IMG/VR virus record: IMGVR_UViG_3300002091_000104
Location: 1-26,219 of that record
Reading direction: 5' to 3' (one strand)
DNA length: 26,219 nt
Origin: a virus
Lineage: Duplodnaviria > Caudoviricetes
Shown here: piece after piece, positions 931 to 21,905 of the stretch
Numbering within the stretch: the stretch's first letter is position 1
Layout of the letters: every line of letters starts with the position of its first letter
Notes under the pieces: model-generated
Told to the model about the DNA's origin: nothing
Database searches by the model: none
The model's input: only the letters and a program-made list of their open reading frames with translations
Translations under genes and position numbers: made by a program

Positions 931-1365
931 TTAAATTTCTTTTTTTAACTCCCTGTCTAAATCTCTAATCTTTATTTGATTTTTTTTATCGTGTATCTTT
1001 TTTCCTTTGGCGAGAGCAATCTCCATTTTAATTAGACCTTTATCGTTCAGGAATAATCTGTAGGGAATTATAGTTAAACCATTGGTGAGTTGATTCTCCA
1101 AGTTGTTTAACTCTTTTCGTTTAAGTAAAAGTTTTCTGTCCCGGGTTGTATCGTGAGAGGAACCATAACCATAATCGGAGATGTTCATCCCTTTAACAAA
1201 TAACTCACCATTATTAAAATAACAATAACCTTCAGAGATGGATGCTTTACCACCTCTAATTGATTTAACTTCACTGCCAAGTAATGAAACCCCCGCAATT
1301 TCTGTTTGGATAAATTCATATTCAAACTTGGCTTTCTTATTGATTATGTTGATTGATTTTTTCAT
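931..1365 (-). CDS. smpB: SsrA-binding protein SmpB
   Basis: NKKAKFEY, AGVSLLGSEVKSIR, RDRKLLL and ALAKGKKIHDKK motifs are typical of SmpB. Confidence 0.96.
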   Translation of the reverse strand: MKKSINIINKKAKFEYEFIQTEIAGVSLLGSEVKSIRGGKASISEGYCYFNNGELFVKGMNISDYGYGSSHDTTRDRKLLLKRKELNNLENQLTNGLTIIPYRLFLNDKGLIKMEIALAKGKKIHDKKNQIKIRDLDRELKKEI

Positions 1366-2579: not shown

Positions 2580-3425
2580 AATACGATGAGAATACTCGTC
2601 TTACTAAGAATCTTTTGAAGGATTATTGTTTCCCTTCGTTTCCATCAACTTTTGGTTGATAATTCTTAACACCGGTTATTTAGGATAACCATACCTTAGG
2701 GTCTTAATTACTCTCCTGATACTCAATCCTATTCAAGTTTGCGACCTGATTCGGGGTTCGACCCCCTATAAGTTTTTCACAGAAATCTAATCAGTCTTGC
2801 GGACATCTTAGGCTACCGACAGCCGGTAACTAAGTTGGTGTCTTACATCAAAACCCGGTAAACACTTTTGCTCTATATCTTTTAGTTTTTCACCATATTG
2901 AAAATAGTAATTGTGTTGTGGATGAATCAAAGAAGTGGTCTACCATAAGCTCCATAACCTTTTGGGTTAAAGAATACTAAACTTCTTCGTGAGATATCCC
3001 TATCTCGGTAATTTAAGAATTCTTCGAATCAAAATCTTGGTAGATGTTTGATAAGGATAATGACAGCACCACCTGTTACTTATCTTGTCTTTCGACTTTA
3101 AGATTTCTCTTGTACTGGAACCCGCAATCATAAAGTTGGATGACTTTATTTCTCACATAGTCCCTATGAGTTATTCTTAAATTGGAGTTCCCCCCTCAAC
3201 CGAAAGACCCACATCTCCCGGTCAGTAATCCATTTCCCTACGAAGTTATCCTCGGTACTACAGGTTTACTGATATCTCACTTGTATACTCGAGCTCCCTT
3301 TCAGAAGCCCCAAACTTAATAACACAACTAAGTTCGGTTTATATTGAATTTCTTCAATTTATTTAAGGATGATATACCACCCATTATCATTTTTTACTCC
3401 ACCGAAGTGGGTAAAGGATAATCCA
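2580..3425 (-). ncRNA. Large structured ncRNA (~850 nt), GOLLD-like candidate
   Basis: No ORF of 60 aa or more; GC above flanks; many short hairpins (e.g. GTC-GAAA-GAC, ATCAAC-CAAAA-GTTGAT, GGTTAT..ATAACC); own promoter, boxA-like site and terminator; adjacent to tRNAs. Size and context fit GOLLD; the family call is not verified. Confidence 0.62.
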
Positions 3426-3751: not shown

Positions 3752-3762
3752 ATAATCTATTG

Positions 3763-3853
3763 TGACACCGACAGGCTTCGAACCTATGGCACAGAGTCTT
3801 TCGTTACTCCTGCTCTACCAAGGGAAATAAATCTCCCACTGAGCTACAGTGTC
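3763..3853 (-). tRNA. Atypical tRNA-like gene (hairpin inserted in D-loop, 8-nt anticodon loop AACGAAAG)
   Basis: Acceptor GACACTG/CGGTGTC-A; D arm GCTC...GAGC containing GGGAGATTTATTTCCC; T arm ATAGG-TTCGAAG-CCTGT. Confidence 0.7.
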
Positions 3854-10052: not shown

Positions 10053-11078
10053 TTACAATTTTTTGAATTCCGGTCTAATTAGATTCCATATGATTTCAGA
10101 ATAATCTTTTTTATCAAACATTCTGAATAAAATCCCTGACATATGTTTAGGTTGGGTGAATACCCACTCAGCAAATTCCTTTCTATCTGTGATTGATTCT
10201 TTGTCATTGTATTTACCATACATCATATAATCAAATTTTTTACCAACATCTTCAGATATTTGAAAATAACCGTATTTTAAATGTTGGACATAAGATTTGA
10301 TTTTGTCGTAGAATTCATCAGGAACATCTTTTAAAATCTCCATAACATCTTCACCATTTTTCAGGTACTCCCAAACACCAGTTGTGGTGACGTTGGTCAT
10401 AATTTTGTGAAGACGAAGATATTCAACACCTTTCACTTTGACTCTATCTCCGTTAGAAAACTTTACCACGAATCCCTCTTGGTCGTTTTTAACCATTTCT
10501 TTCAGTTGTTTGTAGTCAGTTATACCGTCGTATTTTTTAACCACATCAAAACCATATTGAGCCCACATTTCTATATCATACTCTTTTCCATTCTTATCAA
10601 AGGTTCCTAATAAGACTAACCCTTCATAATCACCATAATCTACTACCACACGATTCTGAGGAAATAAAATTTCAAAACAGAAAGTCAAATGTCTAAACAT
10701 TATGTCGGTGTTATATTTTTTTAATAGTTCTTTAGCTTTGATTGCTTGGTCTGAACCAAATGAACCACGAGTGGCAACCACCCATTGACCTTCGTACCAA
10801 AATACAATTCCTAGTGAGCCGTCCATTTTTTCCCACACCTCAAAGTTTTCGGTTGGTTCAAATTTTCCTTCTTCTATGTTGAAGAATTTGTTAAAAGATT
10901 TTGATACGATATTACCCTTATCATCGGTTACCAATCCACGACACATCAAAAGATGTTCATTCCAAATATTTTCGTATTGACATTTTTCAGAATAATTCCA
11001 TATAGTTAAAGGTAGTGTAGGATGAACTTGTTTATAAACTAATCCATCATCATATAATTTATTTAATATTTGTATCAT
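10053..11078 (-). CDS. RNA ligase, T4 Rnl1-like
   Basis: CRGLV, FNKFFN, motif I EKMDGSLG, motif IV EGFVV, motif V KVK. Start placed at the MIQILNK ATG (track start 11108). Confidence 0.9.
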   Translation of the reverse strand: MIQILNKLYDDGLVYKQVHPTLPLTIWNYSEKCQYENIWNEHLLMCRGLVTDDKGNIVSKSFNKFFNIEEGKFEPTENFEVWEKMDGSLGIVFWYEGQWVVATRGSFGSDQAIKAKELLKKYNTDIMFRHLTFCFEILFPQNRVVVDYGDYEGLVLLGTFDKNGKEYDIEMWAQYGFDVVKKYDGITDYKQLKEMVKNDQEGFVVKFSNGDRVKVKGVEYLRLHKIMTNVTTTGVWEYLKNGEDVMEILKDVPDEFYDKIKSYVQHLKYGYFQISEDVGKKFDYMMYGKYNDKESITDRKEFAEWVFTQPKHMSGILFRMFDKKDYSEIIWNLIRPEFKKL

Positions 11079-11847
11079 AATTATTTTTGTATTTCCAAAT
11101 GAACCCATTTGATGTTTTACAATATCCTGTTAAATTGTTAGAAATAGAATTAAACGACACACCTAAAGTATTTGACGCCTCCGTAATACTACCCCACTCA
11201 TTTATTAAAATATTTTCCTTACTAAATTGTAATATTGGTTTATTACCTTTCCCTCTATTTTTTAAATTAGGGATACCTTTTTTCGACTCACTAATTTTAC
11301 CCCCCCAAGTAACTTCACGACCAATCATTTTTTTTCGTATTTTTTCTTTAGTTTCATCACTAAGTACACTACCTTTCTTTGCTTGACTTAATTTTTTTTT
11401 ATGTTCTTCAGTTAAAATTGAATTTTTTCTATTTCCTGGTTTACCTTTTCTTTGTCGTGAACTTTTACCGTAGATTTCTTGTTTTTTTTGAGTTGGTAAG
11501 GAATCAAAATATTGTTTAAGACTTTTGGATATTTTACTTTTTGTCTCATCACTATTTTCACCATTTTTATCTTTAGTATTTGTTAATAATAAATTCAACC
11601 CATCCATTAAAACATTATAATGGTCTTGCCAATATCTTTCTCGTTCATTTAATAATTCAATTTCACACTCCTCAATCACAGTAAAATTGTGGTTATCCAC
11701 ACCATACTTTATTAATGAGTTATATAATTTTTTTTGAGAATAACATCTTATTTTTTTTTGATATTCATAAAAACGCCTTTCAATGTCGATACTTTGACCA
11801 ATGTAAATTTTACCTTTAGGATTTGTTATTTTGTATATTCCAATCAT
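11059..11847 (-). CDS. GIY-YIG homing endonuclease with NUMOD3/NUMOD1 repeats
   Basis: GIYKITN...IYIGQS..I..R; SDETK.KI repeats; C-terminal W.SI.EAS..LG...GFIWKY. Confidence 0.92.
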   Translation of the reverse strand: MIGIYKITNPKGKIYIGQSIDIERRFYEYQKKIRCYSQKKLYNSLIKYGVDNHNFTVIEECEIELLNERERYWQDHYNVLMDGLNLLLTNTKDKNGENSDETKSKISKSLKQYFDSLPTQKKQEIYGKSSRQRKGKPGNRKNSILTEEHKKKLSQAKKGSVLSDETKEKIRKKMIGREVTWGGKISESKKGIPNLKNRGKGNKPILQFSKENILINEWGSITEASNTLGVSFNSISNNLTGYCKTSNGFIWKYKNNYDTNIK

Positions 11848-12713: not shown

Positions 12714-13487
12714 TTATTTAATTAACTTTAATTTTTTTAAGTATTCTCTATCAACAATTATTAAAGTGTGTTCTGGATATTGTTCGATAAATAAATCCAT
12801 TTTCATTTTTGAGTGTGGGTGTAAATAACCTTTTACCTCGTAAAAAATATTATTACAATAAAAATCAGGTGTATATGTATTATTATCATTTAATATAAAA
12901 GTGTGTTTTTCATATTCCCAAATAAACCCTAAACTATCCAAATACTTTGCATAAATAACTTCCCAAGTTGACCTCATTTTGATAATAATATCATTATTCT
13001 CATATAATGAATATTTTGAAAATTTTGGTATTTTACCGTACATACCATTTTTATTACCCGAAACTTTTTCAGATATTCTTCTCTTACTATCTTCCGTGTG
13101 ATTCCACCCAAAAACTTTTGGTCTAGTTTTATTATATAATGTGGTTGATGGTCTTGGAACCCCTTTTTGAGAATCTGAAATTTTCTTTCTAGTTTCATCA
13201 GTTTGTATTCGACCTAATCTATTTTTTGTTTGTCGATTTTTATATTCAATATCTTCCCATAATTTTTTTTGAGACTTAGAAATTTTTAATTTAGTTTCAT
13301 CACTAATTTTTTTCCCTTTATGAATTTCACTAAGTTTTAATTTAGTTTCATCACTTCTCTTTTTCTGTGGTTTACCCTTTGATGCAAAGTTTCTACATTC
13401 AATAGAACAATATAATATACCTTGACCATAATATTGTTTATTACAACAATTACAAATTCTATTTTTTTTACCCATAGTTTTCAACAT
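12714..13487 (-). CDS. NUMOD3-repeat protein with C-terminal PD-(D/E)XK nuclease (putative homing endonuclease)
   Basis: CS..C motif, SDETKLK repeats, MRSTWE...YTPDF...EVKG. Confidence 0.82.
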   Translation of the reverse strand: MLKTMGKKNRICNCCNKQYYGQGILYCSIECRNFASKGKPQKKRSDETKLKLSEIHKGKKISDETKLKISKSQKKLWEDIEYKNRQTKNRLGRIQTDETRKKISDSQKGVPRPSTTLYNKTRPKVFGWNHTEDSKRRISEKVSGNKNGMYGKIPKFSKYSLYENNDIIIKMRSTWEVIYAKYLDSLGFIWEYEKHTFILNDNNTYTPDFYCNNIFYEVKGYLHPHSKMKMDLFIEQYPEHTLIIVDREYLKKLKLIK

Positions 13488-13522: not shown

Positions 13523-13962
13523 TTATAAACGTACAATAAATCTATTTTTCATATCATTTATTTTTTCAATTGGAACATTATGAATATTCTCACCGTTATG
13601 AGTATTTTCCACAATAATCGAGAACACTTTGTATCCATATTTTTCGGATAAATCATAATATGGTTTCATTTCCCACTCTTGTGTGAATGTGTTGGACACT
13701 ATAATTCTATTTGAAGGTAATGATATACCCTCCCAACCTTTCATAGCAACTTCAACGGAATCTTGACACCATTTATGAGCATCTTTTAGTTTTGTAAAAT
13801 CAAATTGATACTCACCATCTTTCATAAAAAACATATCGGCTTCAATATGTTTTCCACCCAAAGACTTCGCTAATGTTGTTTTACCACTTCCAGGTATTAC
13901 GGAACCCCCCTTAAAAGGAATAGTTCCTTCAGGGGGGTTATATTTTCTTTTATGTTATTCAT
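13523..13962 (-). CDS. P-loop kinase (AAA_33/PNK-like), split in the Walker A by a stop and frame change
   Basis: ATG at 13962 (TAATG overlap with upstream gene) gives MNNIKENITPLKELFLLRGVP*; after TAATA another frame continues PGSGKTTLAKSLGG...EADMFF...AHKWCQ...IIVSNTF...HNVP. Confidence 0.8.
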
Positions 13963-14237
13963 TATAAACTTTCTAAATGTTCAACAATTCTCTTAAACTT
14001 ATCCACATCTTTTTTATCAATAATCATTTCGTCAAATGCTCCATAACGAGATTCATAACCAAAGATGTATTTAAGACCATATTTAACTCTTTTCCAAAAT
14101 GGTCGTTTATTTAATAGTATTTGAAGATATACTTCCGGATATCTCTCTCCATCGATAACATCCTCACTATAAGATATTACCATTTGATGTTCAGTACTAT
14201 GACAAGCACAGATAACAATTTCTCTTTCTTTTTCCAT
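13962..14237 (-). CDS. Hypothetical phage protein
   Basis: ORF in operon. Confidence 0.75.
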   Translation of the reverse strand: MEKEREIVICACHSTEHQMVISYSEDVIDGERYPEVYLQILLNKRPFWKRVKYGLKYIFGYESRYGAFDEMIIDKKDVDKFKRIVEHLESL

Positions 14238-14238
14238 A

Positions 14239-14502
14239 TTAACTTACTTTTACTTCTATTAGTTTTCTTCTCAACCATTGTTCATTAACATTATCAGGTC
14301 TATTACCTAAAATAATTTCATCAACAGCATCTCCAACGGATTCCATTAACATTCTTTTAATTTCAGATGGTGTATCCATAGAGTAGAATGAATAACAATC
14401 TTGAAGTAACTCAAGAGGTAATGGAACCTCAATTATTATCCGTGATGATACTAATGAATCATTTTCATTAAAATGGTCTTCCTCAATTCGTGTTTTATAC
14501 AT
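14239..14502 (-). CDS. Hypothetical protein
   Basis: ORF track 14239..14538; start moved to MYKTRI to avoid overlap. Confidence 0.6.
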   Translation of the reverse strand: MYKTRIEEDHFNENDSLVSSRIIIEVPLPLELLQDCYSFYSMDTPSEIKRMLMESVGDAVDEIILGNRPDNVNEQWLRRKLIEVKVS

Positions 14503-14681: not shown

Positions 14682-15344
14682 TTACTTACGTTTTTTTCCG
14701 TCTTCAGTTTCAATCTCATCCGTATGGTGGTCAAATAACATATCCGACGCAATTTCACGTTTATCCATTATTCGTATAATATCATCAATATCATACACTC
14801 CAAACGTTGGGTGACCATCCATACCAACGTCCATTTTTTTACCTTTACCAAATCTTAGGTTTGTCGGGAGATGTACGTGCCCGTGAAGTTGGATATGACC
14901 TTTATTTAAACCATCCCAACTCTGTATTGGGAAATGGCAAAGAACAAATGTTTTGAATTTATAAATCAATCTTGTGTAGTGACTAACACTTGTGAATAAA
15001 TCCTGTACTCCGTCTCGGTTATTCTCTATATGCGTATCGTGATTTCCCAATATAAGGTGAATCTCTTTACACAAAATTCTATCTCTAAATTTTTTAATGT
15101 TTTCTACACCAGAAAAACTCCAATCCCCAAGATGAATTAACACATCATCTTGTCCAACAACGCTATTAATGTTATTAACGATTGTTTCGTTCATCTGTTC
15201 TATTGTATTAAAATCTCTTGTTTGAGATATTGGAATACTACCATCCGGTAATCTCCAAGAAGTTACTCCACGACAGATATTTTTGTGACCATAGTGGGAA
15301 TCTGAAACTAACCACACTTTTCTATTGTTATCTATTTTAATCAT
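14682..15344 (-). CDS. Calcineurin-like metallophosphoesterase
   Basis: SDSHYGH, LGD, GNHD, CHFP, HGHVH motifs. Confidence 0.92.
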   Translation of the reverse strand: MIKIDNNRKVWLVSDSHYGHKNICRGVTSWRLPDGSIPISQTRDFNTIEQMNETIVNNINSVVGQDDVLIHLGDWSFSGVENIKKFRDRILCKEIHLILGNHDTHIENNRDGVQDLFTSVSHYTRLIYKFKTFVLCHFPIQSWDGLNKGHIQLHGHVHLPTNLRFGKGKKMDVGMDGHPTFGVYDIDDIIRIMDKREIASDMLFDHHTDEIETEDGKKRK

Positions 15345-21616: not shown

Positions 21617-21824
21617 CAATGAGATTAATTTGGGGTAGATGTCCACAGTTTTCCTATTCAAAACCCATCGCGTCTTACCGCTTAAAAGTCAACCATTACT
21701 CGGAGGCAAGATGGTGTTCTTCCCTTTATTCCGACAGACCCCCTCTGTAAAACCGTTTGAGGCGTCAGCTACATCTTTGTTTAAGAAACGATGCCAAATC
21801 TGTTGAGTATCTCTATCTCAATTG
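21617..21824 (-). ncRNA. Unknown ~205-nt RNA between tRNAs, ends complementary
   Basis: (A)TTGAGAT...ATCTCA(T)T termini; GC-richer than flanks; no ORF. Confidence 0.4.
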
Positions 21825-21905
21825 TAGTCAGGACAGGACTCGAACCTGTAATTCCGGTTAAACCCCCTCGATGGGGCCGCGTCTATCCAATTCCGCCACC
21901 CGACC
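21825..21905 (-). tRNA. tRNA-like RNA, AGTCAGG family, 6-nt anticodon loop ATCGAG
   Basis: GGTCGGG/CCTGACT-A; GCCCC-ATCGAG-GGGGT; near-duplicate of 22027..22106. Confidence 0.65.

Follow-up and report, generated by a model that had tools for sequence, protein, structure and literature searches.

A conserved proline-stop cassette in the Walker A motif of phage polynucleotide kinase-like genes: a probable ribosomal hop, likely spread by a homing endonuclease

In a polynucleotide kinase-like gene of a virus of the Caudoviricetes, the Walker A motif is split by an in-frame stop codon; ribosomes probably hop this stop to make the whole kinase, and the cassette responsible has likely been spread by a homing endonuclease. 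The stretch analyzed (26,219 nucleotides, hereafter the window) is the whole virus record IMGVR_UViG_3300002091_000104, carried by freshwater metagenomes. The arrangement is conserved and is most likely a programmed hop, one that would work like those of T4 gene 60 and the MobA element without being a member of that family. An earlier, sequence-only reading of the window had proposed a programmed hop with a 5′ hairpin, between matched Pro codons and regulating an RNA-repair kinase. Comparison supports the hop and its hairpin well, as the layout recurs in 63 distinct versions, the hairpin arms covary, the skips cover every reading frame and selection is purifying; the matched codons and the regulation of the kinase gain no such support.

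All features of the site are on the minus strand. The first frame (ORF1, 13900..13962) runs for 21 codons from an ATG at 13962-13960, overlapping the stop of the upstream gene, to the take-off Pro, and ends ...LLRGVP; this is the commonest ORF1 length, and the ATG lies exactly there in 36 of 57 cases. The predicted take-off codon CCG (13900..13902) is followed by a coding gap (13895..13899) consisting of the stop TAA (13899-13897) and the filler TA (13896-13895), a 5-nt gap shared with the group of locus L161, and then by the predicted landing triplet CCT (13892..13894), which would not itself be decoded as a residue. CCT opens a 123-codon frame and is followed by GGA AGT GGT AAA ACA; the 122 codons from the resume GGA to the stop at 13525-13523 (ORF2, 13523..13891) encode the rest of the protein. 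The CCG-TAA-TA-CCT layout first described in the Walker A motif holds in every coordinate, as does the argument that a simple -1 shift would lose the first Gly: Val would take its place. Relative to an intact allele with the same upstream gene (L125), the window has 30 more bases at the gene start and 8 more in Walker A. Alignment with L125 places the former as a ten-codon N-terminal extension (13930..13959), not present in intact alleles, that holds most of the 5′ hairpin arm. A G-rich run (13906..13911) 3 nt before the take-off codon may be an internal Shine-Dalgarno helper; transcription slippage on this run was also considered, but could not take out an in-frame stop.

The split is not an assembly error: positions 13657-14400 recur without a difference or a gap in a contig from run X4 (same year and habitat, but without a flag as a possible source), and 13897-13944 recur without a difference in a short contig from run X5, which belongs to another study (2023); run X6 does not reach the site. 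Four RNA-labelled runs (shares 0.05-0.08) gave distant relatives only, and no read set among them bridged a cassette.

Nor is the break unique to this genome, a possibility the sequence-only reading had raised against itself. A protein search with ORF2 alone, in which the best 80 of 226 viral loci and the best 80 of 429 metagenome loci were examined (metagenome scan, 52 of 64 parts), contained two with Pro-stop-Pro and hairpin (L002, L129) among these best 160; the other 158 were uninterrupted, two loci flagged by the script being open frames without a near Met. Pattern scans, of which two forced Pro at both ends, two left both codons free (46/64 and 41/64 parts) and three freed the landing only, gave 408 parses and 61 distinct sequences leading into a kinase. 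Four of these (L075, L143, L150, L160) proved to be intact genes that had been parsed from a stop further upstream; excluding them left a set of 57, to which a search anchored on the neighboring nuclease added six. The resulting 63 cases, including the window, are distinct sequences rather than independent events, and comprise 51 short and 12 long kinases, two families about 30% alike. In cellular genomes only one of 73 pattern matches was real (L612), on a contig binned as Saprospirales, which is too weak to name a host.

Between take-off codon and resume Gly lie 5, 6, 7, 8 or 9 nt (3, 50, 5, 2 and 3 cases, respectively), 6 nt being in frame. All three stops are used (TAA 30, TGA 26, TAG 7); the DNA patterns required a stop, while the protein-anchored searches did not, and it is there in 63/63. 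Skipping exactly from the stop through the landing triplet rebuilds G-x-P-G-x-G-K in every case, and the P-loops of 104 distinct intact homologues have no insertion. Since the skips fall in all three frames and the intact P-loop takes no insertion, only a hop would fit all cases; readthrough or any single frameshift would leave some of them unexplained. Close relatives can differ in both gap length and landing triplet, as do L170 and L411 (ORF2 93% identical), which swap between 6- and 7-nt skips, and L197 and L343 (87%).

The RNA hairpin at 13903..13939 (5′ arm 13939-13924, loop 13923-13921, 3′ arm 13920-13903) is as strong, and as close against the take-off codon, as originally described: it folds at -22.9 kcal/mol (z -4.20; none of 200 shuffled sequences folds as well), with the base ending 1 nt ahead of the take-off codon and the loop beginning 21 nt upstream of that Pro. 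A hairpin is predicted in 63/63 cases, at -18.1 to -30.8 kcal/mol and with a constant geometry, the loop edge lying 20-23 nt from take-off and the base at -2 to +1. That it is not a chance structure follows from the gap in folding energy over the same 53-nt window, where the 63 interrupted cases average -23.8 (weakest -18.1) and the 104 intact homologues -3.6 (strongest -8.7), the intact set being the best matches to the window's ORF2 and not matched sisters of each case. The covariation check suggested with the original observation found compensatory pairs across 36 distinct hairpins: six lower-stem positions, running from base 2 of the Arg codon to base 2 of the codon two further on, are paired in 36/36; C-G, U-A, G-C, A-U and G-U replace one another, and a single position can show as many as four pair types. 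In 36/36, pairing between a hairpin's own two arms is stronger than the average obtained with the arms of other hairpins (-24.2 vs -14.9), and in 19/36 it is the best or tied for best. On the raw alignment, RNAalifold detects no more than 5 of the stem pairs, since bulges put the arms out of register. The hairpin was also considered as a promoter or terminator; no terminator was called.

Pro precedes the stop in 63/63 cases, including 32/32 from scans that left the take-off codon free. The codon is CCT in 31, CCG in 28 and CCA in 4, never CCC; CCA makes up 3/57 take-offs vs 36/102 intact Pro codons. This Pro is dictated by the target site, and so need not be a selected signal. The landing triplet is looser (CTA 19, CCA 15, CCG 11, TCA 5, CCT 3, CTT 3, ACA 3, CTG 2, TTA 2). 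The earlier expectation that take-off and landing be matched Pro codons thus fails, since 34/63 landing triplets are not Pro codons, where 102/104 intact homologues have Pro. Judged from sequence, pairing with the Pro anticodon would be possible for the 29 Pro codons, for 31 others through G:U, and at two of three positions for the remaining 3. The landing starts with two pyrimidines in 60/63, pairing the two G's of the anticodon by G:C or G:U; a rule that it always does so was broken by the three ACA cases, found later, in which the landing overlaps the stop. Within the set of 57, non-Pro landings end in A, the partner of U34, in 24/29, and in the longer gaps no earlier pairable triplet occurs between stop and landing. 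On the tree, the first two landing bases changed at least 17 times. We read this looseness as probable re-pairing of P-site peptidyl-tRNA-Pro(UGG), a tRNA that has been described as shift-prone (PMC4519876), and P-site re-pairing is known to have latitude (10.1101/2022.08.31.505936; 10.1101/2024.12.09.627546). C-to-T mutation bias, the easiest route from an ancestral CCN, could explain part of it.

The doubt that the split gene might be a pseudogene under relaxed selection is countered by ORF2, which is under purifying selection: dN/dS is 0.04-0.21 in 34/46 close pairs (silent sites are saturated in the 12 others), and the residue after GK, not forced by the searches, is Ser or Thr in 57/57. 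No common internal start was found in ORF2 across this set, the first start codon ranging from codon 8 to codon 56 (in the window, a TTG at 13861) with conserved residues preceding each. ORF2 matches Pfam AAA_33 at E 1.8e-5, below its cut-off, and phrog_2071 at E 4.9e-32; an intact homologue has a sequence match to phrog_505 (E 3.9e-6), and its structural model (pLDDT 90) best matches T4 polynucleotide kinase (1ly1, E 2.5e-6, TM 0.73), while a PDB sequence search returned no match under E 0.09. The gene is likely an RNA-repair kinase of putative activity, sharing the modelled fold, the Walker A motif and RNA-repair neighbors with the T4 kinase domain and phrog_2071. It differs from T4 Pnk in being a stand-alone kinase module of about 130 residues, with 22% identity in the structural alignment.

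In the window the genes around it include a T4 Rnl1-type RNA ligase (10053..11108, minus strand; PF09511, E 6.3e-18) and a metallophosphoesterase (14682..15344, minus strand; PF00149, E 6.8e-6; phrog_547), both in an RNA-repair context, as well as a cyclic-phosphate receiver protein. The window is rich in tRNA genes and carries a GOLLD RNA (2583-2989, minus strand; 281.6 bits, Rfam) and an SmpB gene (931-1365, minus strand). Tagging by tmRNA and SmpB was considered and set aside: SmpB is present in this record, but no tmRNA was found in the window or in the genomes G001 and G002.

Several tRNA-like genes deserve mention. A 92-nt RNA in the window (3762-3853, minus strand), with a close relative in G001 (L460:5438-5529, minus strand), is called tRNA-Pro(TGG) by ARAGORN, its anticodon stem being mismatched. 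On visual inspection, an alternative fold with an additional D-loop hairpin and a GAA anticodon seems possible. It was dropped as a candidate for a dedicated hopping tRNA on account of its poor ARAGORN fold and the lack of an Rfam tRNA match. Other tRNA-like genes have anticodon loops of 8 nt (L460:6485-6572, minus strand) and 6 nt (window 21824-21905, minus strand). In tRNA-Pro, the usual base at position 37 is G. The tRNA-Pro(TGG) genes of two hop-positive jumbo phages (L471:3038-3110 and L476:18524-18599, both minus strand) have A at positions 32 and 37; judging by this base, m1G37 could be absent from them and slippage easier.

What many hop loci share in their surroundings is an endonuclease. 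This cassette-linked gene encodes 290 residues, four conserved cysteines among them, and combines NUMOD3 repeats with a nuclease domain that is TnsA-like. Of the 56 hop loci whose flank was long enough, 36 have it within 1 kb upstream (divergent in 30, co-directional in 6), against none of the 90 intact loci, with the profile built from hop neighbors and the intact loci not matched by kinship. An earlier count of 7/57, made with 600-nt flanks and the nuclease domain only, had missed the divergent copies. Approached from the nuclease side, the best 80 of 189 nuclease loci include 63 with a kinase in the flank, 61 of them interrupted and 2 intact, the two beside intact kinases being more distant relatives; in the 17 loci with no kinase, no hop cassette was found. 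The nuclease is thus tied overall to the altered allele, as in a homing cassette, although not in the window, one of 20/56 hop loci in which it is not upstream; L129 and L161, whose cassettes resemble that of the window most closely, do have it. The window has another endonuclease gene downstream of the kinase (12714..13487, minus strand; Pfam NUMOD3 and Phage_endo_I, PD-(D/E)XK-type), which the profile of the cassette-linked family does not match and which is only distantly like that family (hhalign probability 91%, E 8.9e-7). No full-length relative of the linked nuclease was found among cultured phages. At L265, the IMG/VR contig of L505, a GIY-YIG nuclease stands upstream of a hop cassette in place of the usual one, echoing the nuclease swaps of MobA. 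Distant relatives of the nuclease (L706, L708, L709, L714, L720, L722, L724, L726-L731) adjoin, by eye, what we take to be intact P-loop-like genes (RecA-like, other kinases), and the family may favor Walker A genes.

On a quick tree (47 vs 99 rows), ORF2s with a hop are interspersed with intact ones (14 changes vs 33-46 when shuffled), and a single hop clade is rejected on the same tree (AU p 8e-11), p-values here being overstated because the cases are related; such scatter is compatible with dispersal through recombination or homing, and also with repeated loss. The hop concerns one gene per genome, and in two complete records of 309 and 325 kb, the cassette gene is the sole copy of its family. 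A scan of frame ends for a second cassette (433 in the window, 5184 in G001, 5475 in G002) gave 2, 20 and 22 hairpin-before-stop matches, respectively, and by inspection the full layout was found only in the kinase.

Much of what is generally looked for in bypassing is present: two selected frames encoding one conserved protein, a stop at the A site, a pairable landing and a conserved RNA structure. A mechanism can be proposed as follows. Translation would start 21 codons upstream and melt the hairpin. A Pro codon in the P site next to a stop in the A site would slow termination and make the ribosome pause; a C-terminal Pro impairs termination (PMC3834316, from a Pro-Pro motif and a title cited there). 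Folding would begin at the loop, 20-23 nt behind the P site, once it has cleared the exit channel; as the G-rich lower stem then zips up, it would drag the message through the ribosome by 5-9 bases, much as the gene 60 5′ stem-loop, with 26 nt from loop to take-off, has been described as a "motor" (10.1101/2024.12.09.627546; PMC5009743). A point against this is that, for synthetic stop-hops, slow decoding at the A site is given as the driving force (PMC5009743). Because the stem ends at take-off, the pull would, by inference from the ribosome footprint, be spent within about ten bases, fitting the 5-9 nt range. The peptidyl-tRNA-Pro, most likely the UGG isoacceptor, would leave a wobble codon (CCT or CCG in 59/63) and land on the first triplet it pairs with, and decoding would resume at the Walker A Gly. 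The G-run may serve as an internal Shine-Dalgarno sequence at 3-nt spacing, that of the release factor 2 +1 stimulator (PMC5009743), and the ten-codon A-rich extension would hold the 5′ arm clear of the initiating ribosome. As to origin, the putative endonuclease would cut intact alleles near the conserved Walker A sequence, while the recoded, interrupted allele would escape cutting and the hop would keep the gene working; the window copy would have lost its nuclease, or moved without one.

Other explanations accommodate parts of this evidence. The hop may be real but kept mainly as a regulator, with low ribosome load, scarce release factor or damaged tRNA raising kinase levels when host anticodon nucleases strike. 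This is compatible with the preferred explanation but rather unlikely to be the main reason for the cassette: most homologues are uninterrupted (158 of the best 160 loci), no single release factor could be sensed if all three stops are used, and the endonuclease link accounts for the site without regulation. The RNA ligase, phosphoesterase and cyclic-phosphate receiver genes flanking the kinase do suggest repair, and T4 Pnk and Rnl1 repair PrrC-cut tRNA (PMC3014915); gene 60 bypassing is weaker in polysomes, according to a title cited in PMC10732093. Persistence of the cassette without the nuclease at 20/56 loci also favors a regulator, but gene 60 bypass, too, is reported to be retained after nuclease loss (10.1101/2022.08.31.505936; 10.1101/2024.12.09.627546). 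The earlier suggestion that the element regulates the kinase is thus left unsupported. Its strong association with a single endonuclease family rather suggests that it belongs to a mobile element, much like the bypass of T4 gene 60. That it also senses translation stress is possible, but much less likely.

The remaining alternatives dispense with the hop. Readthrough where 6 or 9 nt are skipped, combined with +1 or -1 shifts at Pro-stop elsewhere and giving one to three extra P-loop residues, or a skip of the stop only with decoding of the "landing" triplet, would suit a G-run at the spacing of the release factor 2 stimulator (PMC5009743), a shift-prone tRNA-Pro(UGG) (PMC4519876) and an ORF2 frame that is open upstream in three 7-nt cases. 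It is nevertheless improbable, as it needs three mechanisms on one conserved hairpin, with L170 and L411 exchanging 6- and 7-nt skips between closely related genes; 104 intact homologues have no extra P-loop residue, and the landing triplets (Pro, Leu, Ser, Thr) form an anticodon class, not a residue class. Removal of the gap from the RNA, by cleavage and ligation with phage repair enzymes or as a micro-intron, finds some encouragement in the nearby RNA ligase gene and in a hairpin that could bind protein, but is very improbable: the piece would be only 5-9 nt, with nothing shared beyond the stop codon, the hairpin is wholly upstream at ribosome-footprint distance, and the constraints track codons (an in-frame stop after Pro, an anticodon-compatible landing). 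There is just as slight a chance that endonuclease insertion inactivated the kinase, or that ORF2 starts internally and lacks Walker A; internal start codons such as the window's TTG exist, but the dN/dS values, the conserved residues ahead of each first start with none in common, and the compensatory changes in the hairpin all speak against this.

A programmed hop carried by a mobile cassette has clear parallels in T4 gene 60 and MobA: an upstream endonuclease that is often missing, an N-terminal extension, a recoded homology region, a take-off codon beside a stop, a 5′ stem-loop some 21-26 nt behind the P site and insertion in a conserved catalytic motif. The published accounts of MobA describe an element in which an N-terminal extension and a homology region accompany the bypass; its nuclease has frequently disappeared, and its insert is reported to block self-nicking and proposed to block self-cleavage (10.1101/2022.08.31.505936; 10.1101/2024.12.09.627546). 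Unlike these, the present cassette targets the Walker A motif of a polynucleotide kinase rather than the Toprim of Topo2L, and its nuclease is NUMOD3 plus TnsA-like rather than HNH, GIY-YIG or VSR. It differs from gene 60 in its Pro take-off (not Gly or Asp), a gap of 2-6 nt, mostly in frame (not about 50), that leaves no space for an A-site stem-loop or gap mini-Shine-Dalgarno, an ORF1 of only about 21 codons, and a landing that often differs at codon position 1 or 2. The 5′ hairpin, here the conserved part, is described as not conserved among gene 60 homologues.

Closer in layout are the synthetic E. coli "stop-hops" (PMC5009743), codon-stop-codon arrangements in which 9 nt give one residue, as in 50/63 cases here; the present ones differ in being natural, with a covarying hairpin and tolerance of near-cognate landing. 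According to that 2016 review, no natural in-frame stop-hop was known. The UUA bypass in the terminase of Streptomyces phage Hau3 (PMC10732093) is similar in its 7-10 nt gap and in its proposed stimulators, a 5′ stem-loop and a Shine-Dalgarno sequence, but has a hungry UUA trigger and a proposed regulatory role, the available text mentioning no endonuclease. The byps of Magnusiomyces mitochondria (PMC5009743) likewise have short inserts and take-off and landing sites that are not always matched; they differ in an unused A-site codon, many genes and relaxed mitochondrial decoding, as against one gene per genome and a bacterial host here. The available text of PMC4351075, on a start-site puzzle beside an HNH gene, and of PMC13602936 holds nothing decisive for the cassette. 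Neither bypassing in a phage kinase nor a natural stop-hop was found in the literature searched, mostly open papers; supplements of the gene 60 and MobA preprints could bear on this.

Taken further, the cassette is moderately likely to be a self-contained module of about 60 bases, working by hairpin zipping alone and with near-cognate landing: the first natural programmed stop-hop family, independent of gene 60 and serving, in two distant kinase families, as the immunity device of a Walker A-targeting NUMOD3/TnsA-like homing endonuclease. Programmed bypassing has had one well-studied case, whose many overlapping signals make it hard to test the idea that the exiting mRNA drives the ribosome, and events at the mRNA exit have been called arguably the main unsolved problem (10.1101/2024.12.09.627546). 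The 63 natural variants isolate the 5′ hairpin element and form series in which gap length, landing triplet and stop vary, and the cassette is compact enough to fit any reporter. They would provide natural in-frame stop-hops and a measure of how loose P-site re-pairing can be, and would show a third way, beside introns and inteins, for homing nucleases to reside at conserved motifs. Genes of this type are mis-annotated, as truncated or as readthrough.
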